The notes under the pieces are model-generated. The model was not told the origin of the DNA and searched no databases. It saw only the letters and a program-made list of their open reading frames with translations. A stretch of DNA of 64,000 nucleotides, taken from assembly GCA_963821375.1 (NCBI GenBank), contig CAWGDN010000001.1, forward strand, positions 136,580-200,579, read 5' to 3'. This DNA comes from Vicinamibacterales bacterium (lineage in GTDB: Bacteria; Acidobacteriota; Vicinamibacteria; Vicinamibacterales; JAMQPK01). Position numbers and translations under genes: made by a program. Positions within the stretch are counted from its first letter, which is position 1, and every line of letters begins with the position of its first letter. Positions 31,443 through 61,211 of the stretch are shown in pieces.

Positions 31443-32603
31443 TCAGTACGAGACCTGCGTCCAGACACCTCCCTTGCGGGCGCTTTCCAGGATCGAATCG
31501 ACGACGCAATTAGCCCGGTAGCCGTCTTCGAACGTCGCGACGGCAGGCGGCAAAGTACCGTACGGCGGGCCGCCGCGAATGACATCGTAGATGTCCCGCA
31601 TGAGATTGAAAAACGCATCGGGCCAGGCTTCCTGATGGCCCCCAGGCAAGTGCGCGTACGGTCTCACCTCGGTGTCGACGAGCGACGGATCCTTCTGCAG
31701 CGTTTCGTTAGCCCTGTCGCGATGGCCGAACCATAACTCGTTCTGGCGCTCTTGACGCCACGCGATGGACGCCTTGGAACCGCAGACTTCGAGAACGAGA
31801 TCGTTCTTGTGCCCGCTGCACACTTGGGCAACGGAGAAGCTTCCTTTTGCGCCATTGTCAAACCGGACGAGAACGGAGGCAAGGTCTTCCACCTCGATGT
31901 TGACGACCTCACCTTCGTCAGCGGACGCGGCTACCTGAAATGCTTCGCGTGATCGACGCGGCTTCTTGCGCCGGGGGACCACCGTGGTGATGTCGCCCAG
32001 CACCTGCGTGATCCTCAAACCCGTCACGTGCTGTGCCAGATCGAACCAATGAGAACCGATATCCCCGACTGCGGACGACGCGCCACCAACAGCGCGGTCG
32101 AGCCGCCAGGAATAGTCCGTCTCCTTTATCAGATAGTCCTGAAGGTAAGACCCGTGTATGAAGTGCGGAATCCCGATATCACCACGCGAGATGGCCACAC
32201 GAGCCTGCTGAACGAGCGGATTGCCACGGTAGTTGAATGTCACCGCGGCGACCACACCCGCCCGCTTCGCCCGATCCCGGAGTTCTCTTGCCTCAACCGC
32301 CGTCATGGCGAGAGGCTTGTCGGATACGACGTGCTTGCCGCTCGCGAGGATCGCTGCGGTGATCGGGTAGTGGAGATGATTAGGGGTCGCGACGTGTACG
32401 ACCTGGACTTCGGGGTCGTCAATCAGAGCTTGATAGGAGCCGTAACCTTTGCGAACACCAAGAGTCGTCGCCTTCTGTCGACCCGACTCCTCAGAGCTGC
32501 CAGCGACGGCAACGACGTCCACATATCCGAGCCGTCTCACCGCGTCGATGTGATGAGGGCCCACGAAGCCGGCGCCGACAAGCCCCATTCCGATGCGTGT
32601 CAC
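31443..32603 (-). CDS. Gfo/Idh/MocA family oxidoreductase (cytoplasmic)
   Basis: GAGFVG Rossmann, ATPNHLH, SDKPL, DIGSHW, PGGHQEAW. Confidence 0.9.
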   Translation of the reverse strand: MTRIGMGLVGAGFVGPHHIDAVRRLGYVDVVAVAGSSEESGRQKATTLGVRKGYGSYQALIDDPEVQVVHVATPNHLHYPITAAILASGKHVVSDKPLAMTAVEARELRDRAKRAGVVAAVTFNYRGNPLVQQARVAISRGDIGIPHFIHGSYLQDYLIKETDYSWRLDRAVGGASSAVGDIGSHWFDLAQHVTGLRITQVLGDITTVVPRRKKPRRSREAFQVAASADEGEVVNIEVEDLASVLVRFDNGAKGSFSVAQVCSGHKNDLVLEVCGSKASIAWRQERQNELWFGHRDRANETLQKDPSLVDTEVRPYAHLPGGHQEAWPDAFFNLMRDIYDVIRGGPPYGTLPPAVATFEDGYRANCVVDSILESARKGGVWTQVSY

Positions 32604-33763
32604 TACCGCGCCCCCAAGATCACTTCGGTTGTCAGCTGATCCAACCGTTCATAGGCGAGGCCGGTCGACGTCAATGCCGCGCGATCGAACGGCAAAGCCA
32701 ACAAGCTGTCTCGACTCTGGACTGAGTAACCGGACAGATCTGGCAGACCTTTGCTTTCTTTCCTTCGAACCAGCGCCTGGATTTCCGGATCCGCATTCCA
32801 TCGTGCAGCTCGTTCTTTCAAGATCAGGTAGGTGCGCATGCAGCCACGCGCGAACTCGCGCACGCCGTCGTAGTCTTCGGTTCGGTAGGCATGGGCGTCG
32901 AAGTGCCGCGAACCGTCGTAGCCGACGTCCTCGAGAAACTTCACCAGCCAGAACGCGGCTTTCGGATTGGCGGAACCGAATCGGTAGTCCTGATCGTAAC
33001 GTCCGGACATTTGATCATTGAGATCGATGTGGAACAGCTTGCCCGCCTCCCATGCCTGCGCCACCGCATGCGTGAAATTCAGGCCGGCCATGTGCTCGTG
33101 CGCCATTTCTGGGTTGACGCCCACCATGTCCGGATGATCGAGCGTCGCGATGAAACCGAGGTAGGCCCCCGTCGTCGCCATGTAGATGTCGCCGCGCGGC
33201 TCGTTCGGCTTCGCCTCGAGCGCAAACCGATAGGCATATCGGCGATCGATCGAGTACTCGCACAGGTAGTTGACCGCTTCGCGCAAGCGCTTCACCGCTT
33301 CGTCCGGGCGGCGGCAGGCATCGGTCTCGGTGCCCTCGCGTCCGCCCCACAGCACGAAAATTTTCGCGCCGAGTTCGGCTCCCAGGTCCATGGCCTTCAT
33401 GGTCTTCTGAATCGCGAAGGCGCGAACGGCGGGATCGTTGGACGTGAACCCGCCGTCACGGAACACCGCGTCCGTGAACAGGTTGACGGTCGCCATCGGG
33501 ACGACGATGCCATGGCGTTCGCATGCTGCTCGAAAGTCCCGGACAATCCGATCCCGCTCTGACCCAGACGCGTCGATGGGGACTAGATCGTTGTCGTGCA
33601 GATTCACACCCCAGGCACCCACCTCGGCCAACAGCGCGACGGCGTCGACAGGCGGCAGCGGATCACGCACGACATCGCCGAAGGGATCGCGCCCTCGGTT
33701 GCCGACAGTCCAAAGACCGAACGAAAATTTGTGCTCGGGGCGGGGCGTGTATTGGTCGGTCAT
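32603..33763 (-). CDS. xylA: Xylose isomerase (short, class I type)
   Basis: [59 protein letters not shown]. Confidence 0.93.
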
Positions 33764-33769
33764 GAATTC

Positions 33770-35281
33770 TCAGACTCCTACCGGACTCGGCATCGTTTGA
33801 AAGATTGTCTTCAGGGCGGAGTACACGCGACGATACTCGTCATACCTCTGATTCAATACAGCCGCGTCTTCCGGTCGAGGAGTCGTGACGCCGGCGGCTC
33901 GTACTACTTCGTCGCAGGCAGCGTCCACTGTGGACCACAGCCCGGCGCCGACACCTGCCAGAAGCGCAGCACCAAACGCGGCGCCCTCGGATGTGGCAGG
34001 GGTTTCCACCGAGTGTCCGTACACATCCGCTTGAATCTGGCGCCAGAGTGCGGAGCGGGATCCCCCACCTCCAAGACGTAGCTGTCGAATCGGAACTCCC
34101 AGGGCCGCAAAAATCGACAGCGAGTCTCGCAGGCTGAACGCAACCCCTTCGAGCACGGCGCGAGCGACATGCGCCCGCGTGTGATTCGCGGAAAGCCCGA
34201 GGAGAGCGGCCCGTACATTGGGATCGAGATGGGGTGTGCGTTCGCCCATTAAATACGGCACCCACAGCACGCCATCCGATCCTGATGGAACCGTCGACGC
34301 GTCGGCCGCGAGGGTTTCGTAACCTCGATCGTCGGCCATCTCGCGCAGCAAATCTCGCCACCAGCGGAGGGAAAGCCCGGCGGCCTGCGTGACGCCCATC
34401 AGATGCCACCGTGCCGGGACGGCGTGACAGAACGTGTGAAGACGCCCCTTGGGGTCGAGCGAGGGTTGATCGGTGGCCGCGAACACCACACCCGACGTTC
34501 CAATGGTGACGCTGACGGAACCGGGGCGCGTGATGCCCATCCCAATCGCTCCCGCGGCCTGGTCGCCCGCCCCTGCCACAATGGGCGTGCCCTTCCGGAG
34601 ACCCGTTGCGACTGCCGCCTCGGCCGAGACGGTCGCACAAATTTCCGGCGACTCGAAAACCAGCGGCAAGAGCGCCGGATCAATGTCTGTCGCGTGAACC
34701 ATCTCCATCGACCACTCTCGGCGGGCGACATCGAACATCAGCGTGCCCGAGGCGTCAGCCACGTCGGTTGCCCGCTCGCCGCTCAACCGGAAGCGCACGT
34801 AGTCTTTGGGAAGGAGAACATGCCGCACCCGTTGCCATGTGGCAGGCTCGTGCTGACGAACCCAAAGGAGTTTGGTCAGCGTGAAGTTCGTCAGAGGGGG
34901 ATTTGATGTCAACTGCAGGACGCGATCCAGTCCCATGGTGTTGCGGAGCCAGTCGCACTGAGCTTCCGTGCGTTGATCGCACCAAATGATGGCCGGCCGC
35001 ACCGGGTCCCCCGCCGCATCGAGAAGGACGGCTCCGTGCATCTGGCCGGAAAGACCTATCGCCGCGATCGCATCGGCCGGAACCCCACTGACCAGCAGCA
35101 CTTCGTGGATGGCTTGCCGCGTCGCTCGCCACCAGTCCTCCGGTTGCTGCTCCGCCCATCCGGTCTGAGGCGACGCAAATTGCGCATGCTCAGCGGTTGC
35201 GGCAGCCAGCATGCGCCCGTCGTCTGCGACAACGATCGCACGCGATCCCGTAGTGCCGACGTCTATGCCAAGAAGAGGAAT
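33770..35281 (-). CDS. xylB: Xylulokinase (FGGY family); apparent ATT start
   Basis: In-frame LLGIDVGTTGSRA upstream of the ORF-track start; LSGQMHG, WCDQR, LLPKDY, GDQAA, PYLMGERTPH, GGGSRS; adjacent to xylA. Confidence 0.9.
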   Translation of the reverse strand: MPLLGIDVGTTGSRAIVVADDGRMLAAATAEHAQFASPQTGWAEQQPEDWWRATRQAIHEVLLVSGVPADAIAAIGLSGQMHGAVLLDAAGDPVRPAIIWCDQRTEAQCDWLRNTMGLDRVLQLTSNPPLTNFTLTKLLWVRQHEPATWQRVRHVLLPKDYVRFRLSGERATDVADASGTLMFDVARREWSMEMVHATDIDPALLPLVFESPEICATVSAEAAVATGLRKGTPIVAGAGDQAAGAIGMGITRPGSVSVTIGTSGVVFAATDQPSLDPKGRLHTFCHAVPARWHLMGVTQAAGLSLRWWRDLLREMADDRGYETLAADASTVPSGSDGVLWVPYLMGERTPHLDPNVRAALLGLSANHTRAHVARAVLEGVAFSLRDSLSIFAALGVPIRQLRLGGGGSRSALWRQIQADVYGHSVETPATSEGAAFGAALLAGVGAGLWSTVDAACDEVVRAAGVTTPRPEDAAVLNQRYDEYRRVYSALKTIFQTMPSPVGV

Positions 35282-35462: not shown

Positions 35463-36497
35463 TTAGTGGATCTGGAGGCCTCGCACGGGTGCGGGCCCTG
35501 TGCTGTCCCGGATGAGCAGCTTCATCCGAAACTCGATTGTTTGCACCTGACCAGGCGTGTCGACGACTTCAAAAAGTCGGCGGCACGCAGCGCTGCCCAT
35601 CTGACGCATCGGTTGCGCAGCGCTCGTCAGCGCAGGCCACAGCCTCTCTCCTTCGGGCAAACCGTCGAATCCCACGACAGAGAGCTGCTGCGGCATTCGG
35701 ATACCCATCTCGTGCGCGACACGCATGAAGCCAGACGCCAGAGCGTCGTTGGCAAATACGATCGCAGTGATATTGCGCGGCTTTTCCAAGAACGTGCGCC
35801 CAAACTTCAAGCCGGCATCCGCTTCGTAGCTGCCGCACGAGAAGATGTGCGAAAGACTGAGGCTCAGGCCATGCGCCCGCAGGCCGTCACGTAAGCCAAG
35901 CATGCGGTGCTTCGAGTCAATGGAATGTGCAGGCCCTCCAACGAACGCCACATGCTTGTGACCGAGGTCGAAGAGGTGCGTCGCGACGGAAATGCCAGCT
36001 GCGCGATTGTCGCAACGCACGACTTGGACGTGGCTGAACCCTTCATCCGGGGCAATCATCACAGTGGGAAGCTGTGCCTCAACCGCCGCGCGAATGATCG
36101 GACGATCGCGTCGTTGAGACTTCGCGATGACCAGGCCGTCGACGCGGCGCTCGCGGATCCACTCGAGAACGATGTCGGGCTCATACTTTCCCGTTAGCTC
36201 CGTGCTCGCCAGCATCAGGCTCTCGTCGCGCGGAGACAACTCCTCCTCGATGCCGACGAGCAGCTGCGTGAACCAGGGATCCTGTATCGAGTCCACAACC
36301 ACGCCGATGCACCCGCGACGGCCCAAGCTGAGATTGCGGGCTGTGGCCGATGGCTTGTAGTCGAGTTCCTCGATGACGCGCGCAATCCGTGCGCGCGCAC
36401 CCGCGCTCACATAGTGCCCGTTCAGGTAACGGGAAATCGTACTTACCGCGACCCCCGAGCGCCGAGCTACCGCCGCAATGTTTGACCTGCTCTTCAC
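35463..36497 (-). CDS. LacI family transcriptional regulator (candidate xylose-regulon repressor)
   Basis: NIAAVARRSGVAVSTISRYLNG HTH, YKPSATARNL hinge, ANDALA, SVVGFDG. Confidence 0.92.
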   Translation of the reverse strand: MKSRSNIAAVARRSGVAVSTISRYLNGHYVSAGARARIARVIEELDYKPSATARNLSLGRRGCIGVVVDSIQDPWFTQLLVGIEEELSPRDESLMLASTELTGKYEPDIVLEWIRERRVDGLVIAKSQRRDRPIIRAAVEAQLPTVMIAPDEGFSHVQVVRCDNRAAGISVATHLFDLGHKHVAFVGGPAHSIDSKHRMLGLRDGLRAHGLSLSLSHIFSCGSYEADAGLKFGRTFLEKPRNITAIVFANDALASGFMRVAHEMGIRMPQQLSVVGFDGLPEGERLWPALTSAAQPMRQMGSAACRRLFEVVDTPGQVQTIEFRMKLLIRDSTGPAPVRGLQIH

Positions 36498-36548: not shown

Positions 36549-38312
36549 CTAGTCAGGCAACCCGAACGTCAGAAGGGCGTTTCCAGCGGCCACGGTCACG
36601 TATTGCTTGCCATCGACGGCATAGGTGATCGAATTCGTAATCCAACTTCCCACTTGCACCTTAAAGAGGAGTTGACCGCTGCGTGCGTCGAGGGCCAAAA
36701 AGTACCCCTCTCTTCCGCCTCCGAAAACCACGTCACCTCCGGTCGACAGCACGCTCGCATCCGTCCCATCGGTCATTTTGTATTCCCACTCCATCTGACC
36801 CGTCTTCGGATCCAGAGCCCTGATGGTGCCGTAGTTTTCCTCCTCCGGAATTCGAAGATTCGGGCCCTGCGCAGGCCGCATCGTCATGGTTCGCAGATTT
36901 CCGGTCTGGGGGATCGCTGCTCCCTCGCCTCGCCCACCGCCAGCCGCCGGAGCGGGGCCCGCTCCCCGACCACCGCCCGCCGGCGCCGCGCCGCCCGCCG
37001 GTGCCGCGCCCCGGCCTCGTACAGGTCCTCCGCCAAAGTGCGTGATGGTATAGGTCCCAATCTCGGGAACCGGAATCGGTGTCTCCGACATCGTCAGGAC
37101 TCGCGCCGTATTCTCCCAGGCTGGCACGTAGAAAAGGCCGGTCCGCGGGCTGTACGACGGTGAATACCAGTTCGTGGCACCTTGCTGGTTGGGATACACA
37201 ATGGCATTCGGATCGAGGGCTCCGGGCGCAATGATCGGGCGACCCTTCGGATCGAAACCCGCGTTCCAAGTCTGCTTGACGAACGCTTTCGCCAGGAGAA
37301 ACTGGCCTGTGGCTCGATCGAGGACGTAGTAGAACCCGTTCCGGTTGGCCTGCACGACAACCTTCCGAAGACGCCCTTCGATCTGCATGTCGAGGAGTAC
37401 GGGCATCTCATTCGCGTCCCAATCGTTGACATCATGCGGTACGAACTGATAGTGCCACTTCAATTGGCCGGTATCGGCATCTAACGCAATGAGCGAACAC
37501 GTGTAGAGGTTGTCTCCCTTGCGCTGTTCGCTGCCCGACCGCGGCCAGGGATTTCCCGTCCCCCAGAACGTGAGGTTGGTCTCCGGGTCGTAACTGCCCG
37601 TCAACCACATGCCGCCCCCGCCATTCTTCCAGGAATCACCGCTCCACGTCTCGTGACCCGCTTCACCGGGACCCGGAATGGTGTTGAACCGCCAGACTTC
37701 CTTGCCGGTATTGACGTCGAGGGCCACCAGAAAACCGCGAATCGCTCCTTCAGAAGTAGCGGGACCGACCAACACTTTGTCTTTCACGACCAGTGGCGCC
37801 GCGGTAAAGGCGTAGGCGTCCAACGGATTGGCAACCTGAACGTTCCAGAGCCGGCGTCCAGTTCTGGAGTCCAGGGCGATCACGCGGGCGTCCAGGGTCG
37901 CCAGAAAGAGCTTATCGTCGGCGATTGCCAGCCCCCGAGTCGGGCCGCCACAACAGGGCCGTGCATCGGCTGTCGGCGTATAGCGTGAAATCCAGAATAT
38001 CTTGCCGGACATGGCGTCCAGGGCCACGACGTCATTCCCTTGCACCGTGTACATCACGCCGTCCACAACCAGCGGCGTCACTTCATACGGGTTCAGCGAC
38101 CGAGCCTGCCACACCCATTTCAGCTGAAGATTCTTCGCGTTGCTGGCATTGATCTGATTGAGCGTGCTGTAACGCCAGGCCTTGTAACCGCCGCTGTAGT
38201 GAAGCCAATTCTGCGGTTCCTTCTCGGCGTTCACGAGCCGGCTGAAGGGAACCTGCGCCGACACTGAGACGGCCGCAAGGACACCAAATAGCACAGCAAC
38301 GCGCAATTTCAC
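36549..38312 (-). CDS. PQQ-dependent dehydrogenase, methanol/ethanol family
   Basis: GTG start after the cytochrome gene; EVTPLVVDG, vicinal CC (RPCCGG), SEGAIRG, GTGNP, HDVNDWD, ANRNG. Confidence 0.9.
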   Translation of the reverse strand: MKLRVAVLFGVLAAVSVSAQVPFSRLVNAEKEPQNWLHYSGGYKAWRYSTLNQINASNAKNLQLKWVWQARSLNPYEVTPLVVDGVMYTVQGNDVVALDAMSGKIFWISRYTPTADARPCCGGPTRGLAIADDKLFLATLDARVIALDSRTGRRLWNVQVANPLDAYAFTAAPLVVKDKVLVGPATSEGAIRGFLVALDVNTGKEVWRFNTIPGPGEAGHETWSGDSWKNGGGGMWLTGSYDPETNLTFWGTGNPWPRSGSEQRKGDNLYTCSLIALDADTGQLKWHYQFVPHDVNDWDANEMPVLLDMQIEGRLRKVVVQANRNGFYYVLDRATGQFLLAKAFVKQTWNAGFDPKGRPIIAPGALDPNAIVYPNQQGATNWYSPSYSPRTGLFYVPAWENTARVLTMSETPIPVPEIGTYTITHFGGGPVRGRGAAPAGGAAPAGGGRGAGPAPAAGGGRGEGAAIPQTGNLRTMTMRPAQGPNLRIPEEENYGTIRALDPKTGQMEWEYKMTDGTDASVLSTGGDVVFGGGREGYFLALDARSGQLLFKVQVGSWITNSITYAVDGKQYVTVAAGNALLTFGLPD

Positions 38313-38313
38313 G

Positions 38314-39144
38314 CTACTCTCCCTTTCTTGTCGACAGATACGATACGAGATCGGCCAATTCCTCTTCCGATAACTTCGTCTGAAACGACGGCATGCCGGA
38401 TCTTGGGGACGACGCCGGCAGCGCGCAGATTCGCCTTTACGAAGCTCCGAAGCCGATCGTTTGAATCGATCATCTGCACGGTGTAGCTGTCGTGGTTCAG
38501 AAGGCGGCCGACAATCGTCGTCCCGTCCTGTGTCACGACTCGATAGAAGCGGTTGGATGGCAGCACTTCGGCATCCGGCTCGGCAATCGATCTCGCAATC
38601 TGAGCTGCGGAGCGTTGAGCGCCGATCTCTGTCAGGTCGGGCGCGACCCGCGAGCCCTGGTCGCCGATACGGTGACACGTCAGGCATCCAGCTTTCTCAA
38701 ACACCGATCGTCCGCTGATGGCGCGTTCCGACGTGGCCGCGCTATCGGGTGCCGTCAGCGCAGGGGCACCCGCGGTGGTCGCGGACTTCATATCCGTCGC
38801 CGAGGCGCGTGTTCGCATGAACGCGACGACTTGCATGGCCTGGTCTCGACCCACTCCCGTCGGCGGCATCAATTCGCTGGGCGTGCCGTTCGTGATGACA
38901 GCCGCCAAGTCGACATCCGACAAGTTCGGGCGGCTGAACACGCCCTGCAGCACCTTCACGCTCGGGAGCTGATCGCCCGCCGCGCCGTGGCACGACGCGC
39001 AGTGCAGTTGATACAGGCTGGCGCCCGCCTCGACGTCGCTGGCGGCGTAGGTGGCGGCCACGCCGGCCTGGCTCGAAAGGGGGGCCGTGGCCACGGACAG
39101 TAACGCCGGCCCGAAAAGCCCGAACGTGAGGGGGATGAAGACAT
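38314..39144 (-). CDS. Di-heme cytochrome c, apparent frameshifts near 39110 and 38400
   Basis: CASCH and CLTCH; the shifted frame gives SGMPSFQTKLSEEELADLVSYLSTRKGE*, matching the paralog at 53452; GGAGG precedes ATG 39144. Confidence 0.8.
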
Positions 39145-39212
39145 CCGTCCCTCCACGAGATCTTCGCTGCACCCCTTCCTCCCTGGTTGGATCCCGACGC
39201 TGGGTCGCACAC

Positions 39213-40401: not shown

Positions 40402-40426
40402 GCGAGCGGCTGAACGTCTGAGACAC

Positions 40427-44366: not shown

Positions 44367-44372
44367 CATCCG

Positions 44373-53455: not shown

Positions 53456-54268
53456 TGCGTTCCCTTCAACGTCAGGAGGTAGCTGACCACGTTAGACAGT
53501 TCCTCGCTGGTCAGCTCTTTCTGATATGACGGCATCCCGGCCTTCGTCAGCACTCGAAACTCCTTGAGCTCAGGCTTGCTGAATGAGGCCAGTCGTCCCT
53601 CTTCCGTGACGATCTGCACCGTATACGTATCTTCGTTCAATCGTCGTCCGTTGATGACGGTGCCGTTTCTGGTGACGATGCGAACGGGGCGGTTGATCGG
53701 CCAGAGCTGGCCGTCGGGATCGACGAGTGAGCGCTCGATGATGCCGGCGCTCTTCGTTGCACCGACTGCGGACAAGTTCGGTCCCTTGTAACTTCCACGC
53801 CCGTCGATGCGATGGCAGGTCAGGCACCCCCCTTTGCCCTCGACGATCGCCCGGCCGAGCTTCGGGGTTCCCGGGCTTGAGCGAGCCGGCATCGATCGCA
53901 TTCATGTTGCGCAGATAGGCGACGAGGCCGCCGAGATCCACCGGATCGAGCTTGGTGGGAGGCATGCCGGCCGTCGGAAATCCGTTCGTGATCACCATTC
54001 GAAGCTGCTGATCCGTCGTGGCGCTGCGAAACTTTCCGCTCGCGAGATTGAAGCCGCTGACGCCCTGCCCATCTGGGCCGTGACAACGATCGCAGTTCTC
54101 GGCATATACCCTCAAGCCATGCTCGATGTCTGCGCGCGGGTAGAGCTCCCCGTGTCCCGCCGCGACCCCCTGCGGTGCGGCCGGTGCCTGCGCCGCGCGA
54201 ACCAACGTCATTGTGCCGAACATCGCAAGACACGCGAGAACTATCGTAGGGATTCGTGTCATAGGCAT
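53452..54268 (-). CDS. Di-heme cytochrome c, apparent frameshift near 53870
   Basis: CDRCH..AGMP and CLTCH..AGMPSY; GTGA coupling to the dehydrogenase; paralog of 38314. Confidence 0.85.
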
Positions 54269-54274
54269 TTACGC

Positions 54275-54307
54275 AAAAGGCACGGCGCCGTTACGGCGCC
54301 GTGCCTT
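54275..54307 (-). terminator. Intrinsic terminator/attenuator hairpin between TBDR and cytochrome
   Basis: AAGGCACGGCGCCG-taa-CGGCGCCGTGCCTT, a 14-bp stem ending in TTTT on the minus strand. Confidence 0.7.
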
Positions 54308-54344
54308 GAACATTAGCTCGAACAGCCGCCGAGTGGAAGCGATG

Positions 54345-57300
54345 TTAGAAGGTGAAGTGCAACCCCAGCTGCATGAGCCGCGCATCGCCGGCGCTCTGGA
54401 TCTGACCCATTTGGGCCGAGTTGAGAGCGCTGTTCGGGTTGTTCAGATTCACCCTGTTCAGCAGGTTGAATACCTCGATCCGCAGTTCCAGCGCCCGGCG
54501 CGCGGCACTGCCCATCGCGAACCGCTTGACCAGCGACATGTCAAAGGTGACGGTCCCTGGCCCGATGATGGAATTGCGAGGGGTATTGCCAAACGACCCT
54601 TCCGCCGGCAGCACGAACGCCGTCTTGTCGAAATAGGCCGCGATCAGCTCGTCCTGCGGGCGATCAGTGGGGAGCTCCGGGTCCTTGATTTGATTCGGCC
54701 GCTGCGGGCCCAGACCACGCGAGGACGCCCCGAGCAGCGCCCGGTCCACCCCGCTCGTCACATTCACGGGCTGACCCGAGAGGAACGAGGCGATGCCCGC
54801 CACCCGCCAGCCGCCGAGCACGAAGCCCACGGCCGACGGTTCGTTGAAGAACGGGAGCTCCCACACGCCGTTCACGCGCAGGATATTACGACGGTCGAAG
54901 TCGGAGTATGCCCACTCACCATCGTGTGGGTCATACGGGCTCTGTGCCGAAGCCGAAGTGCTTGTCTGGGACCGATCGTCCTTCGAGTAGGCGAGCGCGT
55001 AGGTGCCCTGCAGCGTGTACCCTCGTGAGTATCTCTTCGTCAGCGTGAGCTGCAGCGAGTTGAACTCGGACGTGGAATCCGAGAAGTAGCTCGGAAGGCT
55101 GGTGAACGACGTCGGATCGATCGGCCGGCGCGCCTGCGCGTTCGCCGCCGTCGCACCCGGGCCATAGACGGCCGCGTTGATCTCGCGCCCATACAGCATG
55201 TTCCGGCCCTGGCTCCCGACATAACCGATCATCGCGATCAGGTCCCGTCCGAACTGCTGCTGAAGGTTCACGTTGTACTGGCGCATGTACGCCGTCTCGA
55301 ATCCCGGGTTGTAATTGAACGCCTGAGTGGGAAGCGTGAATCGCTGGGCTGCGCTCTCATCGTAGAGGAACGGGAACGGCTGGACTATGCCGGCGTAGGC
55401 GTTGTACGACTGCACGTTGTTGGGCAGCGAGCGGACCACATTCTGCGTGAACGGCACGTTTTCGTTCTGCTGCTCGATCGCCTGCGCCGGCATCGGCAGG
55501 TAATAGATGCCCCAGCCCGCACGCAGGGACGTGCGGCCGTTGCCTCGCACATCCCAAGCGGCGCCGAGTCTCGGCGCGAAGTTGTTCTTGTCGGCCTCAA
55601 TGATCGTATCGGGAATCCCCGCATCGCCCGGCGCGACAAGCCCCCTGGGCGCGGTCGGGAACCGCGTCGACTGCTGATCCTGCCGGAACGTGGAGGCGTA
55701 CAGATTCTTCTCGACCCAGGTTTCCCCTGCTTCATACCGGAGTCCGAGGTTCAACGTGAACCGCCCGAACTTCACGTCGTCCTGGACGTAGAGACGGACG
55801 GGTGTCTGATCCTCTTGACTGCAGAAACAGGAGTACTGCGAGAAATTGGTGGTATTGCCCAACAGGAAGTCCGCCATCGCATTGCCTGTGAAGCTTCCGT
55901 TATAGGGGATGACACCGCCGACCTGGAATGGGAAGTACGAGCGGTTCTGCTGCCAGTGGTACGAGCCGCCGAAGGTGACCGCATGCCGTGTCGGGGACCA
56001 TGACATCTTGTAGTCGACCTGGGCGAGACGGCCGCGCTCGTTCCAGTTCTGATTGCCAGACGACAAGCTGAACCCGCCACCGGTCACCGACACCTGCGGC
56101 ACGATGGCAGCCGGCTCGGGGAGGTTGCTGGAGCGCCACAATGCTCCCAGTTGCTCCGGGCTCTTGTTGTTCGGCGACCATCCCTGGTCGGTGGTGATCG
56201 TGGTATAGGTGAACCGGCCCTCGCCGATCAGATTATTCCGATAGATCTTCGTGGTCGAGGCGGCCGTCCCTTGCACCACGTTCGAGATGTCATAGTTCAA
56301 CGCATTGATGGTGCCGTTGGCAGTGGTGCCGTTGGTCTTGTTCCAGTAGTACCGCACGTTGACGGTGTCGGAATCCGTGAACCGGTGGTCGATCTTGAAG
56401 GTCACCTGATTCCCGTCGGTCGGGCGATCGACCAGTTCGACCCGCTCCACGCCGCTCGTCGGCAACTGGAGATACGTATTCATAATGTTGACCGACATGG
56501 GATCGAACCGGCTGACAGGAATCTGTCTGTTCGGAAACGGTTGGCCCGTCAGCGGATCATTGAGATTTCCCGTAGTGCCGCTGAAATCGCCATTCCGCTG
56601 GGCCGCCGTAGGCACGTTGTAACGGTTGATGGCTTGAGTCTCGATGCGCAACGCTTCGTAGTTGCCGAAGAAGAACGTCCGGTTCTGGAAAATCGGTCCC
56701 CCGAACGTGGCGCCGAACTGGTTCTGGTTCAGCTTCGCTTTGGAGGGCGCGAAGAAGTTCTTCTGGCTCATCGCGTCGTTGCGGAAGTATTCCCAGGCGG
56801 TGCCTGAAAAATTGTTCGTGCCCGACTTGGTGATCGCCATCAGCGTGGCGCCGCCGGCCTCGCCGTACTCAGCCGGGTAGGTACTCGTCAATACCTGAAA
56901 TTCCTGGAGCGAGTCTGGCGACGGCAGGCTCTGCGCCGTGTTGAACGCAGCGGTGCGCATCGACGCGCCGTCGAGCATCACGTTGCTCTGATTGGGGCGC
57001 GCCCCGCTCGCCGAAATGGTCGGACCCTGCCGCTGGTTCACGTTGGTCTGGGGCAAGGTCGCCGACCCCACACCCGGTGTCAGCAGCGCGAGGTTGAGCA
57101 CGCCGCGCCCGACCATCGGCAGCTTCTCCAGGCGCTCTCGATCGATGACGGTTCCCACTGATGACGAATTCGTATCGACGAAGACCGTTTCGCCGGTGAC
57201 CGTGATCTGCTCGCTGATCGACCCGAGTTCCAGGCGGCCATCCACGCGCTGGTTCTGCCCGACTTCGATTCGAATCGCGTCGTAGCGTGATTGCTTGAAC

Positions 57301-57584
57301 CCGTCGAGCGAGATATCCACGCGATACTGCCCCGGCGGCAGCAGCGGGATCGCGTAGCTGCCGGTGGCCTCGCTCGTGGTCGAGCGCACCTGACCGGTGT
57401 CGACATTGGTCACGGTCACGGTTGCGCCGGGCAACACGCCACCGGACGTGTCCGCTACCGTGCCGAGAATCTGTCCGGTGGTCGCCTGGCCGTAACCGGG
57501 CGCAGCCACCAGCGTAAGTACAAAAAGCATCACCACACTGACGGTCACAAGCTGACGACTTTGCCAACATTTCAGGTCGGTCAT
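54345..57584 (-). CDS. TonB-dependent receptor with CarboxypepD_reg domain
   Basis: GAGGAG RBS; GTVADTSGGVLPGATVT, ITKSGTN, NQFGATFGGP, NNFAPRLG, QLGLHFTF. Confidence 0.92.
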   Translation of the reverse strand: MTDLKCWQSRQLVTVSVVMLFVLTLVAAPGYGQATTGQILGTVADTSGGVLPGATVTVTNVDTGQVRSTTSEATGSYAIPLLPPGQYRVDISLDGFKQSRYDAIRIEVGQNQRVDGRLELGSISEQITVTGETVFVDTNSSSVGTVIDRERLEKLPMVGRGVLNLALLTPGVGSATLPQTNVNQRQGPTISASGARPNQSNVMLDGASMRTAAFNTAQSLPSPDSLQEFQVLTSTYPAEYGEAGGATLMAITKSGTNNFSGTAWEYFRNDAMSQKNFFAPSKAKLNQNQFGATFGGPIFQNRTFFFGNYEALRIETQAINRYNVPTAAQRNGDFSGTTGNLNDPLTGQPFPNRQIPVSRFDPMSVNIMNTYLQLPTSGVERVELVDRPTDGNQVTFKIDHRFTDSDTVNVRYYWNKTNGTTANGTINALNYDISNVVQGTAASTTKIYRNNLIGEGRFTYTTITTDQGWSPNNKSPEQLGALWRSSNLPEPAAIVPQVSVTGGGFSLSSGNQNWNERGRLAQVDYKMSWSPTRHAVTFGGSYHWQQNRSYFPFQVGGVIPYNGSFTGNAMADFLLGNTTNFSQYSCFCSQEDQTPVRLYVQDDVKFGRFTLNLGLRYEAGETWVEKNLYASTFRQDQQSTRFPTAPRGLVAPGDAGIPDTIIEADKNNFAPRLGAAWDVRGNGRTSLRAGWGIYYLPMPAQAIEQQNENVPFTQNVVRSLPNNVQSYNAYAGIVQPFPFLYDESAAQRFTLPTQAFNYNPGFETAYMRQYNVNLQQQFGRDLIAMIGYVGSQGRNMLYGREINAAVYGPGATAANAQARRPIDPTSFTSLPSYFSDSTSEFNSLQLTLTKRYSRGYTLQGTYALAYSKDDRSQTSTSASAQSPYDPHDGEWAYSDFDRRNILRVNGVWELPFFNEPSAVGFVLGGWRVAGIASFLSGQPVNVTSGVDRALLGASSRGLGPQRPNQIKDPELPTDRPQDELIAAYFDKTAFVLPAEGSFGNTPRNSIIGPGTVTFDMSLVKRFAMGSAARRALELRIEVFNLLNRVNLNNPNSALNSAQMGQIQSAGDARLMQLGLHFTF

Positions 57585-57611
57585 CGGAGGCTCCTCTCGT
57601 ATTTCATCTGA

Positions 57612-58523
57612 CTATTTCATTTTCATTTCATGCTCGCCCGGACTCAGCGGGCGAATCTCGATGTTTCGAAACCAAATCTCCGCGAACTCAATCTCTATCG
57701 CGATCTTTCCGCGATCCAGTCTCTTGAAGGTGTCCCCAGTCGGGACCTGCTGCGACGCATTAGCCGTGGGACCTAAGTTGGCAGGCGAAGGCGGATCGGG
57801 CGCCTGCATGTTGAAGAGGGTATTGACCAGGCGACCATTGACCAGATAAGCCGCGCGATCATCCCTCGCGATGATCTCGAGCTGATTCCAATCCTCGAGC
57901 TTTTCAAAATCAGCATTCTTCCGCCATCCCCGAGGCTGCCCCGGCCCTCCCACCGTCACGATGTTCGGGTTGTTCGGCATCGGTGGGTTGGGCCACGTCG
58001 GATTTCCTCCGGCGGCATTCGGTACTGGCGCAGCGGTCACGAATCGAGTGCCATTGACCGCAAGGACGTCTCCGGTATCGGATTCCTGAATCTGAAAGTG
58101 CATGCCCGTCGGCCAGACGCGATCCGGAGCGATCATGTGGAAATAGATACCGCTGTCGCGTTTGTACATGAGGCGCGGCGCGTATCGGGCACTGCCCCAC
58201 TTGTATTCCACACGGAAGTGATAGTTGCTGTACTCCTGGTTGGTGGCCAGGTAGCCTCCCTCCACGTAGCCTTGGGGACCATTGCCAAGGATGTGGAGCA
58301 TGCCGTCTTCAATCCGCACATACCCGGTCGGGTCGTTGTTCTTGCCTGATCTCACCAGGAACGTGTACCACCCGTCCAAGTTCTTGCCGTTGAAGAGAGG
58401 GCTCCAGCCATCGGCGCCCGCCGTCGGGAAGACCGAGCTCGCCGTCTGCGCTCGCGCGGATCTCACGCCAATGGGACTTGCCAGTGCCGCCAGACCGGTT
58501 GCCAGGAAATCGCGCCGATTCAT
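57612..58523 (-). CDS. Tat-exported DUF1080 family protein
   Basis: GGAGGT RBS; MNRRDFL; WSPLFNGKNLDGW, RDSG, FRNIEIRPL; paralog of 44373. Confidence 0.85.
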   Translation of the reverse strand: MNRRDFLATGLAALASPIGVRSARAQTASSVFPTAGADGWSPLFNGKNLDGWYTFLVRSGKNNDPTGYVRIEDGMLHILGNGPQGYVEGGYLATNQEYSNYHFRVEYKWGSARYAPRLMYKRDSGIYFHMIAPDRVWPTGMHFQIQESDTGDVLAVNGTRFVTAAPVPNAAGGNPTWPNPPMPNNPNIVTVGGPGQPRGWRKNADFEKLEDWNQLEIIARDDRAAYLVNGRLVNTLFNMQAPDPPSPANLGPTANASQQVPTGDTFKRLDRGKIAIEIEFAEIWFRNIEIRPLSPGEHEMKMK

Positions 58524-58562
58524 CGCACCTCCGCAGTCGTGGAGCTTCTGTGGGTTGAACAG

Positions 58563-58655
58563 TAGCACGTGTGGAAGCGGTTCCTCAATCGCGTGTTCTC
58601 TATTGTTCGGCTGTTGTGCTCGGCTAAGACCCGTCGCATAAATCGGCGACAAATC
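58563..58655 (+). repeat. Promoter cassette copy 2, containing LacI-type site 7 (58572-58585) and a dead gene start
   Basis: TGGAAGCGGTTCCT; ATA AAT CGG CGA CAA ATC aligns with ATG AAT CGA CGA CAA TTC at 39291. Confidence 0.8.
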
Positions 58656-58838
58656 GTCGAATTTGGGCTTTACGCAGGATTCTTGCCAAACAGAAGGCTC
58701 CCAGAGACGAGAAATCCCCTTACAGCCCTCCGCTATGTTTCAGATCATGTCGCACTGGCTGCGACAGTTGCCGCACTCTGCAACGGCTTGATTTTCTAAA
58801 CGTTCCAAATATATGGATCACCCGCGAGTCAGAAGTCC

Positions 58839-60137
58839 CTACTCAAGCAGTTCTCGACCTTTGGTCTCCGGTGCCCAAATCAGGGCCACCATCCCAACCA
58901 GGTACACAGAACTCATGACAAGTGCTGCGCTGCGAAACGACAGGAGCGTCGAGAGGTAACCGAGAAGTAACGGCGTAGGCGCAGCGAGATACCGGACGGT
59001 GTTATAGCAGAGCCCGACACCTGTCCCCCTCAGTCTGGTCGGAAACAACTCTGGAAAATAGATCGCATATCCGGCGAACACCGACAGTTGAGCAAAACCC
59101 ATGAGCGGCAGCATCCAGTAAGCGTGTGCGGCCGTCTGAAGTGAGGCAAACACAAAAATCGTCGCACACATGCTCAAAAGCAAACTACCCAGAAAAGCCA
59201 CTCGACGGCTGACGAACGCAGCCGCCATCGTGAAGGCCCACATGCCGGCGAAAGCGCCGACATCCTGCAGCGCCGTTCCCCAGGCTCGGACACGATCGAT
59301 GACGGCTTGCGATTCTCCGCTCAGCGCTGTTGAGATGAGTTCGGGAGAGAAGAAACCGATGCCCCACAACCCGGTCATTCCCGCAAAACCCAAAGCAAGA
59401 CCGACCAAGGCGTGCCGCCGCCAGCGTACGTCGCGACCGATTTCCATCAGAGATCCAGTACTTTGGGCCCCTGGACTAAGAAGCGCTCTTGCCCGAGCAT
59501 CAATCCACGCTTGCGGCTCCCTCAGCAGCATCACCATGGGCGCAATCAGCACAGCAGGCAATATTCCAACAAAAAACAACAGTCGCCATCCTGGATATCC
59601 CCACGCTTCAGCACCCGGCTGAATCCACAGACTGATCAGCGATCCGAGTATGTTCCCAAGTGCCGACAATGCTTGCAAGGCGCCCAACGCAATCACTCGA
59701 ATACTGCTCGGCACGCTCTCGGCCACCAGCGTCGTGGCGGCACCGAACATCCCCCCAATTCCGATTCCCGCGATGAATCTCATGAGCACGAACGTGCGCC
59801 AGGATTCTGCCAGGCCGCTGAGACCGGTAAATCCCGAGTAGACGATCAGCGTGAGTGCCATTGTCTTTACGCGCCCGATGCGGTCGCTCAAGATGCCAAA
59901 GATAATTCCTCCAGTAGCCCATCCGAGAATCATCGAGGTTGTGGCATAACCTCCAAATCTCGTCAGCTCCGCCGACAAGCCACCCTCGAGGCCGAGCAGG
60001 TCGCGCGTGGCCGCCTCGCGCGCAAGCACAAACAGCCGCTGATCCATGCAGTCAAACATCCAGCCGGCAGAGGCGATGAGCACGACCATCCAGTGGTACG
60101 CGGTCACGTGCTCGGCACGCACCGCCATTCGGTCCAT
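58839..60137 (-). CDS. MFS transporter (sialate/aromatic acid:H+ symporter-like)
   Basis: GWMFDCMD, GILSDRIGR, LVAES, YFPELFPTRLRGTG, PETKG. Confidence 0.88.
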   Translation of the reverse strand: MDRMAVRAEHVTAYHWMVVLIASAGWMFDCMDQRLFVLAREAATRDLLGLEGGLSAELTRFGGYATTSMILGWATGGIIFGILSDRIGRVKTMALTLIVYSGFTGLSGLAESWRTFVLMRFIAGIGIGGMFGAATTLVAESVPSSIRVIALGALQALSALGNILGSLISLWIQPGAEAWGYPGWRLLFFVGILPAVLIAPMVMLLREPQAWIDARARALLSPGAQSTGSLMEIGRDVRWRRHALVGLALGFAGMTGLWGIGFFSPELISTALSGESQAVIDRVRAWGTALQDVGAFAGMWAFTMAAAFVSRRVAFLGSLLLSMCATIFVFASLQTAAHAYWMLPLMGFAQLSVFAGYAIYFPELFPTRLRGTGVGLCYNTVRYLAAPTPLLLGYLSTLLSFRSAALVMSSVYLVGMVALIWAPETKGRELLE

Positions 60138-60197
60138 CGTTGTCGACGAACTGCTGAGTTGTCTCGTAGTGACGCGTAATGAAGCGGAGTATTCCAC

Positions 60198-61211
60198 TTA
60201 GCCGAGCAGGCAATCCTTGCAGTACTGAATCGACCGTGTGAGCTCCGCCAGTACGGTTGAGCCCTCCGGCACGGGGTACTCGTACTCAATGGTCGCGGTG
60301 ATGTTCCACCGACTGTCACGAATGAGCTGTAGGACCTCCCTGATAGGCGTGTCTCCCTGACCGAAAGGCACGTTGGGCCCGTTGTTCATCCGTCGATCCT
60401 TGACGTGCACGTGTGTGATGCGATCATGGATCGTCTTGATGAACTCGACAGGTGAGACATTGTTCGCCGCCACGAAGTGCCCGAGATCGATGTTCGCGGC
60501 GTTGTGCTTCGAGTACGACAGCGCTCTTTGAAAGACGCTGGGCGGCTGCCCGTGCCCGTGGTACGCCACCGGCAGTCGATGCGCCTCCGCGAACGCGCCG
60601 AGCAGCTTGGTGCCGATCACCGAGTAATCGAGCAGCTCGCAGGAGATGGCCCGCGCGCCGAGGTTTTTTGCCAGCTCGAAGAAGTAGTTCACTTCTTCAT
60701 CTGTCATCTCGAAGATCGCAGCGAACGGATCGACCCTGACGATGTCGATGGCCACGCCGGCGCCCTCGTACTTCTTCCGGAACTCCCGGACACGCGCCAT
60801 CGGCAGTGCGAGGCGCCAGTTGCGAAGTTCGCCGGCGGCGGCTGTCTGCGCGGCTCGCTGTTCTGCGGTTGGTGGCGGCGGCGCTGGACCAGCGCCGCGG
60901 GCTCCGGCCCCGCCGGCGCGTGGCACCGCGGCGGGATACGGCGCGGGCGAGCCCAGGAAATGCTCGACCGGTTGCGTACGCAGTTCGAGCGCGCTCAGCC
61001 CGAGCTGCTCGCACACGTTCAGGATAGCGTCGGCCGTGCCGGGCAGCTGTCCGCGAAAGCTATAGGGAACGTTCAACCCGATCTGGACTCCGGCGACTCT
61101 GGAGTTTGGTTTGGCCGCCTGACGCGCGAGGGCAGGCGACGGTTCGGCTAGCAGCGCGCCCGGGAGGCCCGCCAGCGCGATTCGTCCGAGGTCACGTCTC
61201 GTCCACAGCAT
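60198..61211 (-). CDS. Tat-exported sugar phosphate isomerase/epimerase-like TIM barrel
   Basis: AGGAGG RBS; TRRDL; YHGH, DLGHF, HVHVKD, FGQGDTPIREVL, IEYEY. Confidence 0.85.
   Translation of the reverse strand: MLWTRRDLGRIALAGLPGALLAEPSPALARQAAKPNSRVAGVQIGLNVPYSFRGQLPGTADAILNVCEQLGLSALELRTQPVEHFLGSPAPYPAAVPRAGGAGARGAGPAPPPPTAEQRAAQTAAAGELRNWRLALPMARVREFRKKYEGAGVAIDIVRVDPFAAIFEMTDEEVNYFFELAKNLGARAISCELLDYSVIGTKLLGAFAEAHRLPVAYHGHGQPPSVFQRALSYSKHNAANIDLGHFVAANNVSPVEFIKTIHDRITHVHVKDRRMNNGPNVPFGQGDTPIREVLQLIRDSRWNITATIEYEYPVPEGSTVLAELTRSIQYCKDCLLG

Follow-up and report, generated by a model that had tools for sequence, protein, structure and literature searches.

Cytochrome-linked quinoproteins beside exported TIM-barrel and DUF1080 proteins in a Vicinamibacterales genome: a possible coupling of periplasmic oxidation to enolate chemistry

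Gene content and organisation of the span

We analysed a 64-kb window (G000:C1:136580-200579, G+C content ~62%) in the genome of a Vicinamibacterales bacterium of the Acidobacteriota, denoted G000 (2.95 Mb on 9 contigs, estimated completeness 64%). Its span 31443-61211 places pyrroloquinoline quinone (PQQ)-dependent dehydrogenases (PQQ-DHs) with adjacent secreted cytochromes c among exported TIM-barrel proteins of the AP_endonuc_2 family, DUF1080 (3keto-disac_hyd) proteins and a Gfo/Idh/MocA (Gfo) oxidoreductase. Positions without a contig prefix refer to the window; other genomes and surveyed loci carry G and L numbers. A sequence-only reading had treated the span as a single utilisation locus, in which glycosides are probably cleaved by oxidation, elimination and hydration and quinoproteins may supply the periplasmic oxidation. 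We searched 48 open reading frames (ORFs) of the window (28 in the right half, 20 in the left half) against Pfam at E<=1e-3 and 23 ORFs against NCBIfam, and read signal motifs, including those for twin-arginine translocation (Tat), by eye or by regular expression. The genes from which that reading had been built, namely one Gfo enzyme, three TIM barrels (two with Tat motifs), two Tat DUF1080 proteins, TonB-dependent receptors, a major facilitator superfamily (MFS) transporter and xylAB, were all recovered by ORF, Pfam and NCBIfam at or near the places it had assigned to them. Its statement that glycoside hydrolase (GH), SusD and GMC families are missing also held, with zero Pfam matches among the 48 ORFs; TonB-type barrels are present, without the SusD or GH partners of a SusC/SusD-type polysaccharide utilisation locus of Bacteroidota. 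The span does not form a single locus. It divides into four or five neighbouring transcription units, (a) to (e), and also holds a second cytochrome/PQQ-DH pair (36549-39172, minus strand), a pair of genes for periplasmic Amidohydro_2 proteins, and single NHL propeller, VWA and TMEM220 genes.

Unit (a), on the minus strand, begins with a secreted cytochrome c (38309-39172; PF00034, PF13442; TIGR02603, 69.1 bits against 68.15) with two CxxCH motifs, CASCHG and CLTCHR, whose gene overlaps the start of a Sec-exported, eight-bladed PQQ-DH of alcohol dehydrogenase (ADH) type (36549-38315; PF01011; TIGR03075, 481.5 bits against 480.05); a longer 712-aa ORF at this gene is probably an over-call. Downstream follow a LacI-family regulator (35463-36497; Pfam LacI, Peripla_BP_1/3), xylulokinase XylB (33770-35212; TIGR01312, 545 bits, cutoff 380.25), an actinobacterial-type xylose isomerase XylA (32603-33763; TIGR02631, 534.8 bits, cutoff 447) and, as last gene of the xylB-xylA-Gfo operon, the Gfo oxidoreductase (31443-32603; PF01408, PF22725, PF02894). 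The Gfo protein has no signal peptide and shows its Rossmann motif from residue 5, which places it in the cytoplasm. Its best NCBIfam match is levoglucosan dehydrogenase (LgdA) at 194.8 bits, below the cutoff of 650, and it falls far short of BT_2158_fam (36.9 bits, cutoff 750) and BT_2159_fam (34.8 bits, cutoff 650). G000 carries xylAB yet yields no match for GH43 or GH10 and one for GH3; GH43 occurs in 1 of the 25 genomes of the genus.

Unit (b) (39255-43956, plus strand) diverges from unit (a). It consists of a Tat-exported Amidohydro_2 protein with the motif NRRQFL, split by a frameshift into N- and C-terminal halves in two overlapping frames (39255-40401), a second Amidohydro_2 protein with a Tat-like NRREFV motif (40325-41542; PF04909, 136.4 bits), a Tat AP_endonuc_2 TIM barrel (41574-42682; Tat motif SRREFA) with a frameshift near 42284-42326 and a C-terminal piece that matches PF01261, and a secreted, possibly lactonase-like NHL-repeat beta-propeller (42724-43956; PF01436, weak SGL match). 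The upstream half of the window (10753-21832) repeats this kind of gene set together with PQQ-DH and barrel genes, as an NHL propeller, a quinohemoprotein PQQ-DH (773 aa, internal cytochrome domain), a PQQ-DH (646 aa), a Tat Amidohydro_2 protein and an OMP_b-brl_4 barrel, and the window as a whole counts five PQQ-DH and five Amidohydro_2 genes.

Unit (c) is a pair of facing genes, a Tat DUF1080 protein on the minus strand (44373-45272; PF06439, 96.4 bits against 26.8; Tat motif NRRQFL) and a cytoplasmic AP_endonuc_2 TIM barrel on the plus strand (45633-46883; PF01261, 57.4 bits; no signal). The latter belongs to an unplaced subfamily, and its searches returned no NCBIfam match and no meaningful PDB sequence match. 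Just upstream of the window (G000:C1:131331-135601, L135:14332-18602, minus strand), a multicopper oxidase with a CusF domain is colinear with an AP_endonuc_2 and a DUF1080 gene, and thus a further oxidase family stands at such a pair. Unit (d), probably unrelated, interposes an acidobacterial VWA-domain protein (47694-49790, minus strand; TIGR03436, 193.8 bits against 81.25) and a frameshift-split lipoprotein gene (46509-47681). The VWA domain and the OMP_b-brl_4/CarboxypepD_reg barrels both indicate an acidobacterial genome.

Unit (e) extends on the minus strand from 63729 down to 49959. Its downstream part is the run that the sequence-only reading had singled out: a Tat DUF1080 protein (57612-58523; motif NRRxFL; PF06439, 106.6 bits), a TonB-type outer-membrane barrel composed of CarboxypepD_reg, Plug and OMP_b-brl_4 domains (54345-57584; PF25183, 670 bits), a secreted cytochrome c (53452-54268; TIGR02603, 71 bits) and two PQQ-DH genes, copy A (51683-53455; TIGR03075, 396 bits in its broken state) and copy B (49959-51686; PF01011; TIGR03075, 493.3 bits against 480.05), the latter intact, of ADH type and with a Sec signal. 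The run lies on one strand with intergenic gaps of 27, 76, -4 and -4 nt; what had been counted as two PQQ-DHs is a tandem duplicate whose copy A is broken by a 1-nt indel near 52314, and the cytochrome gene is split by a frameshift that leaves its two CxxCH motifs (CDRCHG and CLTCHR) in two frames. The repeats (49956-51711 and 51724-53480, period 1768 bp) are 93.8% identical overall, with ~99% identity over the first ~1160 nt and ~84% over the last 600 nt, and the indel (~52314) sits exactly at the switch, a pattern for which gene conversion, a recombination boundary and an assembly chimera are all conceivable sources. Besides the PQQ-DH gene, the duplicated unit takes in the final ~25 nt of the preceding cytochrome gene. 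DUF1080 genes adjoining TonB-type barrels recur at L137, L180 and L186; at L137 (G000:C1:204200-210048, L137:3621-9469) a 709-aa DUF1080-FG-GAP fusion adjoins another OMP_b-brl_4 barrel, itself in three frames.

A gap of 315 nt separates this run from the upstream part of unit (e), which comprises an MFS transporter (58839-60197; PF07690, PF00083) with an aromatic acid/H+ symporter as best NCBIfam match (143 bits against 418), a Tat AP_endonuc_2 TIM barrel (60198-61211; motif TRRDLG; PF01261), a small four-helix membrane protein of the TMEM220 family (61301-61672; PF15071, 72.8 bits) and, translationally coupled to the latter, a classic TonB-dependent receptor (61669-63729; Plug, TonB_dep_Rec_b-barrel) that reaches 39 bits against the PqqU cutoff of 1200 and is no equivalog. 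We had considered ORF 61301-61672 as a possible lanthanide cargo protein at the receptor, by analogy with bioRxiv 10.64898/2026.07.10.737718, and rejected this on its assignment to TMEM220. Divergent from the receptor, on the plus strand, starts a frameshifted gene (63904-64000) that continues past the window end (G000:C1:200483-203051) and encodes a DUF7133-HEAT-cytochrome c protein of TIGR02604 type ('PVC-type heme-binding'), below called the DUF7133-heme protein; tblastn with the 901-aa protein of L169 recovers it in four frames at 42-66% identity. Promoter and terminator scanning of 49700-61800 returned 3 promoter-like and 9 terminator-like sites, not above the shuffled level (2.2 and 8.0), and did not inform the operon boundaries.

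Conserved clusters in related genomes, family placement and cofactors

Judged from gene neighbourhoods, the tie of a cytochrome-linked PQQ-DH to exported AP_endonuc_2, DUF1080 and Gfo proteins is well supported for the TIGR04528 clade and plausible, by extension, for the left part of the span. A cluster of this clade lies 25 kb upstream of the window (G000:C1:108354-113965, L140:8355-13966), where three AP_endonuc_2 genes, a cytochrome c gene and a PQQ-DH gene share one strand, one neighbouring pair overlapping and the others separated by 3, 88 and 3 nt, and two of the three AP_endonuc_2 proteins carry Tat motifs. The PQQ-DH (G000:C1:112088-113965) is a member of TIGR04528, 'acido-empty-quinoprotein group A' (688.8 bits, cutoff 650), a family for which we know of no assigned function or partner genes. 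The three PQQ-DHs of the span remain below this cutoff (474.8, 485.5 and 386 bits) and share only 37% identity with the upstream paralogue.

We surveyed 20 loci of the closest relatives of the TIGR04528 enzyme (45-55% identity). Loci in related genomes were annotated by BLAST and small home-made hidden Markov models (HMMs) built from few seeds, which can miss subfamilies, and for some by Pfam; neighbour annotation by BLAST alone had overlooked AP_endonuc_2 and DUF1080 genes that the HMMs later recovered. A cytochrome c gene is adjacent in 19 of the 20 loci and an AP_endonuc_2 gene lies within 3 kb in 15, which stem from 12 genomes of 5 genera in 3 families; Gfo is found in 9/20 and DUF1080 in 3/20. 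Two of the five loci without AP_endonuc_2 (L143, L145, L146, L148 and L149) are on contigs <11 kb. Gene order varies (cytochrome-PQQ-AP-Gfo-AP, AP-Gfo-AP-cytochrome-PQQ or AP-cytochrome-PQQ), with operon-like spacing, and the export signals are distributed as follows: the first AP_endonuc_2 protein carries a Tat motif M[YF][TS]RREF (MYTRREF, MFSRREF), the second has no signal, and the Gfo protein, whose best NCBIfam match is LgdA (184 bits against 650), begins at its Rossmann motif, also without a signal. Since neither the Gfo protein nor the second AP_endonuc_2 protein has a signal, the quinoprotein is predicted to be the only periplasmic oxidoreductase encoded in these clusters. Pfam and NCBIfam confirmed the families of L141. 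The synteny of cytochrome, PQQ-DH, Tat AP_endonuc_2, Gfo and AP_endonuc_2 genes is conserved in relatives. As an internal control, in the same genomes the clade of PQQ-DH 49959 shows AP_endonuc_2 in 0/20 loci against 15/20 for TIGR04528. The flanks of the conserved clusters include CUT2-type monosaccharide ABC transporter genes (L155, L157), ThuA (L147), pentose-phosphate genes (L141) and GH95 (L157), and LacI genes flank L141, L151 and L155 as they do PQQ-DH 36549. DUF1080 stands directly beside a cytochrome-PQQ pair at L042, L037, L147 and L152; at L147, ThuA, a Tat-Gfo and DUF1080 adjoin a cytochrome-PQQ-TatAP cluster.

The left part of the span resembles these clusters. Aligned end to end, the window Gfo shares 62-64% of its residues with the Gfo proteins of L141 and L156 (order cytochrome-PQQ-AP-Gfo-AP), the Tat AP_endonuc_2 protein 41574 is 33-50% identical to its counterparts in L141 and L144, the Tat AP_endonuc_2 proteins of the window as a group reach 31-51% identity to those flanking PQQ-DHs in relatives, and protein 60198 shares 50% identity with its counterpart directly after cytochrome-PQQ in L160. 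Because of the Gfo identity, the shared LgdA best match and the Tat AP_endonuc_2 similarity, units (a) and (b) look like a rearranged copy of the conserved TIGR04528-clade cluster, with XylA and XylB apparently standing where relatives have a cytoplasmic AP_endonuc_2 protein. The proposal that PQQ enzymes with dedicated cytochromes act as the periplasmic oxidant thereby retains a basis in the TIGR04528 clusters and, by resemblance, in the left part of the span; for the tandem pair, the 20 loci of its closest relatives offer no AP_endonuc_2 or Gfo partner.

All eight aligned PQQ-DHs carry the D-x-D motif, given as diagnostic of lanthanide binding in PMC11996626, and only 49959 and 36549 combine it with a vicinal Cys-Cys (VCCGGP/PCCGGP; D-F-D in 49959 and D-W-D in 36549). 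These two enzymes pass the TIGR03075 cutoff, each has an adjacent cytochrome c, and in the PDB they come closest to type II quinohemoprotein ADHs (1kb0, 1kv9; E=1e-94 for 49959), PedE/H-type enzymes and XoxF; against TIGR03074 (mGDH type) the window PQQ-DHs score 173-206 bits, far below the cutoff of 832. Genomes of the genus (G000-G024) each contain dozens to >100 first-look PQQ-DH candidates. Neither pqqC nor pqqE was found in the 25 genus genomes, and among 61 relatives pqqC exceeded its cutoff in 2, with a third, weak match below it. Because pqqC and pqqE were not found in the genus, the genome is predicted to be PQQ-auxotrophic and must acquire PQQ from outside by some route, which fits the PQQ scavenging described in PMC12124388. 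G000 has no PqqU equivalog (best 42.9 bits against 1200).

An oxidation-then-enolate reading and its rivals

We tentatively read the operons as sharing one logic, a plausible variation on the 3-keto-sugar routes, in which oxidation by a quinoprotein is followed by enolate chemistry; we infer every chemical step, the oxidised position, the substrate and the service of the tandem PQQ-DH to the adjacent DUF1080 and Tat AP_endonuc_2 proteins. TonB-type barrels would import a sugar-like substrate, and a periplasmic eight-bladed PQQ-DH with a lanthanide-type D-x-D motif would oxidise a hydroxyl to a carbonyl, passing electrons via the co-encoded c-type cytochrome to the respiratory chain. The carbonyl would enable enolate chemistry by the Tat-exported xylose-isomerase-fold enzymes and DUF1080, with elimination of an aglycone or neighbouring sugar and subsequent hydration, or alternatively epimerisation, as the outcome. 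The MFS transporter would then import the keto-sugar, the cytoplasmic LgdA-like Gfo would reduce it to a sugar, and XylA and XylB would feed this sugar to central metabolism.

A more specific proposal, that GH-poor soil Acidobacteria cleave glycosides by a lanthanide- and PQQ-dependent, cytochrome-c-coupled glycoside dehydrogenase replacing Gfo or GMC in a 3-keto-glycoside lyase/hydratase pathway, we consider unlikely. If true, cleavage of the glycosidic bond would feed electrons directly to respiration and depend on scavenged PQQ and a rare-earth metal. Should the broader coupling of oxidation to enolate chemistry be real, non-hydrolytic glycan breakdown through keto intermediates would gain a third oxidase class, quinoprotein plus cytochrome; many orphan PQQ-DHs of Acidobacteria, including the 'empty quinoproteins', would obtain a first physiological role; and soil carbohydrate turnover would be linked to the availability of PQQ and lanthanides. 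Without such coupling, the span would be an ordinary neighbourhood of abundant paralogous families.

The rival that survives best, a serious if somewhat doubtful contender, holds that the gene groups are neighbours and not partners. The cytochrome/PQQ-DH pairs would be self-contained, lanthanide-type alcohol or aldose dehydrogenases that deliver their lactone or aldehyde products to the periplasmic Amidohydro_2 and NHL proteins, and the Tat AP_endonuc_2, DUF1080, MFS and barrel genes would form a separate keto-sugar module whose oxidase is encoded elsewhere, as the DUF7133-heme protein, a Tat-type Gfo or the single GMC protein. We inspected ~20 kb around each of the 20 best matches of PQQ-DH 49959 in relatives (59-75% identity; Pfam on seven loci). 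Cytochrome c is adjacent in 13/20 and a TonB-type barrel present in 8/20, AP_endonuc_2 and Gfo occur in 0/20 each, and DUF1080 appears anywhere in 5/20 and directly adjacent in only 2/20, namely L042, where DUF1080, cytochrome and PQQ-DH follow one another colinearly across a 4-nt gap, as well as L037, with the order PQQ-DUF1080-PQQ. The neighbours are otherwise housekeeping genes (methyltransferase, HAD, QueC, deoxyhypusine synthase), and in relatives this clade is a stand-alone cytochrome/PQQ-DH pair. For PQQ-DH 36549, a search for orthologues at E<=1e-180 in 60 relatives (22 candidates per genome scored) returned only the self-match, at a threshold that may be too strict.

Of 61 genomes searched for the DUF1080 subfamily of the window, just G000 and G059 gave matches at E<=1e-40; a third paralogue in G000 and the two copies in G059 have no shared or redox neighbours. 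The DUF1080-barrel-cytochrome-PQQ-PQQ run may be a lineage-specific juxtaposition. G000 as a whole holds ~19 PQQ-DH loci, 9 DUF1080, 23 AP_endonuc_2, 9 Gfo and 1 GMC matches; 2 of the 9 DUF1080 genes lie <=5 kb from a PQQ-DH against ~0.7 expected, so that chance could account for the proximity seen in G000 by itself and the case therefore depends on other genomes. There, the neighbours within 5 kb of 80 DUF1080 loci from many phyla were Gfo in 10, GMC in 5, AP_endonuc_2 and cytochrome c in 4 each, and PQQ-DH in 2, and most loci had no Gfo, GMC or PQQ-DH. The nearest DUF1080 loci in other genomes belong to Acidobacteriaceae or Terriglobia. Among the surveyed loci, L054 (5316-10861), on a contig of an Acidobacteriaceae metagenome-assembled genome, carries AP_endonuc_2, an 844-aa mGDH-like PQQ-DH and DUF1080 on one strand, and L057 (Terriglobia) carries a classical GMC protein with Gluconate_2-dh3, DUF1080, Gfo and MFS. 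The L054 enzyme is a second, unrelated type of PQQ-DH at the same two families.

Forty homologue loci of the Tat AP_endonuc_2 protein 60198 in relatives suggest another partner. In 17 of the 40, of which 16 belong to the same genus and 1 to another family, the gene adjoins, divergently or colinearly, an ~900-aa cytochrome-bearing ORF together with Gfo, and the two of these ORFs that we checked by Pfam and NCBIfam (L169, L161) both have the DUF7133-HEAT-cytochrome c architecture; a PQQ-DH lies within ~4 kb in only 3/40 (L170, L171, L194). Trios of DUF1080, barrel and Tat AP_endonuc_2 occur without a PQQ-DH at L180 and L186. The DUF7133-heme protein is accordingly a candidate for an alternative periplasmic oxidase, and G000 retains its gene next to unit (e). 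The L169 locus (same-genus G024, 3581-15788) combines a Tat-Gfo, glucuronate isomerase, the DUF7133-heme protein, Gfo, a weak GH88-like protein and a short-chain dehydrogenase/reductase, which suggests a uronate-linked version of the module; an aldo/keto reductase and an Eda-like aldolase were read there by eye from N-terminal sequence. Among the 34 evaluable of 80 metagenome loci of the Tat AP_endonuc_2 family, Gfo lies within 4 kb in 7 and a cytochrome or quinoprotein in only ~11; the redox partners checked by Pfam were a cytochrome-GSDH fusion (L201), PSCyt proteins (L206, L264, L269) and a protein with two cytochrome domains (L245). Tat AP_endonuc_2 proteins thus recur in the company of a cytoplasmic Gfo and some periplasmic redox protein linked to heme, though this partner varies and is often absent.

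Oxidases that could serve such a module from a distance are present. GHs or a GMC partner elsewhere under the same operator had been named by the sequence-only reading as counting against it, and G000 has one GMC match (PF05199) at C5:96403, on another contig, as well as its one GH3, with GH43 and GH10 both missing; Gfo ORFs of 461-495 aa, a size suited to Tat-exported forms, also occur elsewhere in G000. NHL and OMP_b-brl_4 genes are common neighbours of PQQ-DHs, and oxidation at C1 followed by lactone hydrolysis would explain equally well why periplasmic Amidohydro_2 and NHL genes stand beside the PQQ-DHs. Given that the upstream half of the window repeats this pattern of PQQ-DH, NHL, Amidohydro_2 and barrel genes, such C1 oxidation of aldoses stays a viable reading. 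Against mere neighbourhood stand the operon linkage of the TIGR04528 clade with Tat AP_endonuc_2 genes in 15/20 loci, with no other periplasmic oxidoreductase encoded there, the four loci with DUF1080 directly at cytochrome-PQQ (L042, L037, L147, L152) and the short gaps of the window run. The synteny counts overstate the independence of this linkage, because the loci share ancestry.

The second rival keeps the logic of oxidation and enolate chemistry and changes the substrate to cyclitols, hydroaromatics or polyols, oxidised much as inositol, quinate or sorbitol are, with the TIM barrels as inosose- or dehydroshikimate-type dehydratases or ketose epimerases and the MFS transporter importing an acid or ketose; we regard it as improbable. 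It draws on the family placement of the putative lyases. Two of the three AP_endonuc_2 proteins of L140 have IolE (myo-inosose-2 dehydratase) as best NCBIfam match (70-74 bits, cutoff 290), and the third resembles keto-acid or ketose isomerases/epimerases. A profile of 23 Tat AP_endonuc_2 members matches best a set of Parabacteroides proteins that lack a characterised function (4kw2, 3p6l, 3lmz; E=6e-24 to 8e-15), followed by IolE (3cny, 9e-8) ahead of AL1/BT1 (6e-4 to 1e-3) and AtHYD (7e-3). A model of 60198 (pLDDT 88.7) matched the entire xylose-isomerase-like superfamily in Foldseek at 11-17% identity; the matches include the Parabacteroides proteins, UlaE, the 3-dehydroshikimate dehydratase AsbF in 7th place, DgpB-C, a C-glucosyl deglycosidase, AtHYD (8ro4), AL1/BT1, IolE, IolI and ketose epimerases, with the AL1/BT1 structures 8tcr, 8tcd and 8tct ranking 30-43 at an identity of 12-14%. 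DUF1080 57612 matches BT2/AL2-type chains (8tda, 9fbe, 8rr2) over residues 22-109 only (~90 residues; E=2e-4 to 6e-4). The structure comparison with BT2156 and DgpBC put forward in the sequence-only reading thus bore out the shared superfamily fold and did not discriminate lyase function. Because the fold and profile matches span the whole superfamily at low identity, the lyase candidates are placed at superfamily level only, with lyase not separated by fold or profile from hydratase, dehydratase or epimerase, a point that also weighs against the oxidation-then-enolate reading. The MFS transporter, nearest to aromatic-acid symporters, and the CUT2-type monosaccharide ABC genes flanking L155 and L157 have also been counted for such substrates. 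The family matches all lie far under their curated cutoffs, however, DUF1080, the LgdA-like Gfo, ThuA and XylAB indicate sugars, and the scanned ORFs include no protocatechuate or inositol catabolic genes; the QuiC equivalog matches none of the window AP_endonuc_2 proteins and reaches 34 bits only with that of L054.

The frameshifts raise a last possibility. At least five genes of the span are split (39255-40401, 41574-42682, 46509-47681, 51683-53455 and 53452-54268), which weakens any functional interpretation; counting the DUF7133-heme gene at G000:C1:200483-203051, six genes are split within ~35 kb. A decayed or mis-assembled region, with pseudogenes or artefacts in a functionless arrangement, would account for at least five split genes in 30 kb, for the DUF7133-heme gene in four frames and for tandem copies that switch from ~99% to ~84% identity exactly at a 1-nt indel, but it is very improbable, as single-base shifts are the only departure of the split genes from full length, a base is missing at 53858, inside the cytochrome frameshift zone, in one related public contig, and the same families and orders are intact in relatives. 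For these reasons indel error is the simpler reading, and the split genes look more like such error than like decay. Such errors are probably typical of long-read assemblies. Public contig pieces from four DNA runs on the region are 150-1259 bp long and mostly 90-95% alike; one piece of 565 bp spans the junction of cytochrome and PQQ-DH copy A, and none bridges the DUF1080/barrel or barrel/cytochrome junctions.

Comparison with known systems

The oxidation-then-enolate reading has its closest counterpart in the 3-keto-glycoside pathway BT2156-2160/AL1-AL3 of Bacteroides and Alistipes. According to bioRxiv 10.1101/2024.03.25.586180, AL/BT1 is a 3-keto-beta-glucoside 1,2-lyase and the DUF1080 protein AL/BT2 a lyase/hydratase. 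Both systems place an exported AP_endonuc_2-fold enzyme and DUF1080 in the periplasm, and neither would need a Koshland glycosidase. Unlike the redox-neutral cycle described there, which employs a periplasmic NAD-bound Gfo, the span has no periplasmic Gfo, and the role of oxidant would fall to a PQQ quinoprotein served by a dedicated cytochrome; the text of the preprint raises cytochromes as possible re-oxidants and nowhere mentions PQQ. The window proteins lie far from both AL1/BT1 (12-14% identity, profile E=6e-4 to 1e-3) and BT2/AL2, which is matched in the N-terminal part only (E ~2e-4).

The Agrobacterium 3-ketoglycoside route employs G3DH, the hydratase AtHYD and a 3-ketoglucose reductase. 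The levoglucosan pathway, in which LgdA works with LgdB-type TIM barrels, resembles the locus in its cytoplasmic Gfo beside a cytoplasmic AP_endonuc_2 protein, and LgdA is the best match of both the window and the cluster Gfo (195 and 184 bits against 650). It differs in that part of the pathway is exported here, and the LgdA cutoff is missed. C-glycoside deglycosylation by DgpA/CarA with DgpBC/CarBC enters through the fold list, which includes DgpB-C (7drd) and the Microbacterium C-glucosyl deglycosidase (8un2, 8qrz). At 13% identity and ranks 14-23, without a two-subunit B/C pair in the span, these matches bring nothing specific to C-glycosides.

The cyclitol, hydroaromatic or polyol reading has precedents. 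The quinate route couples the membrane PQQ quinate dehydrogenase QuiA to the TIM-barrel dehydroshikimate dehydratase QuiC, and acetic acid bacteria possess PQQ-dependent polyol (Gluconobacter) and inositol dehydrogenases. With XoxF/XoxG, PedH and the type II quinohemoprotein ADHs the window enzymes share the eight-bladed propeller, the Cys-Cys, the D-x-D and the adjacent secreted cytochrome c; unlike what the window context would imply, the known lanthanide-type PQQ ADHs oxidise small alcohols and aldehydes. We know of no lanthanide-type PQQ ADH described with AP_endonuc_2, DUF1080 or Gfo partners, and a literature search for papers joining PQQ or quinoproteins with glycoside 3-dehydrogenases or 3-keto glycosides returned none. 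A survey of PQQ-DH diversity in soil Acidobacteria (bioRxiv 10.64898/2026.07.10.737718) ties six-bladed PQQ enzymes to clusters of carbohydrate-active enzymes and proposes reducing-end oxidation and not keto-glycoside cleavage.

The nearest gene list is that of the Caulobacter LacABC lactose/salicin 3-dehydrogenase (Price et al. 2022, PMC9007349), whose cluster also encodes DUF1080, two epimerase-like proteins, a reductase and a transporter. It shares with the window and with the relatives' clusters nearly the same gene list and a periplasmic oxidation linked to the respiratory chain. Its dehydrogenase is an FAD/GMC enzyme, unlike anything in the window. Because the window has no GMC protein, the single GMC gene of G000 lies on another contig and L057 keeps the GMC arrangement, the PQQ version would amount, by analogy, to a swap of the oxidase relative to the GMC route.

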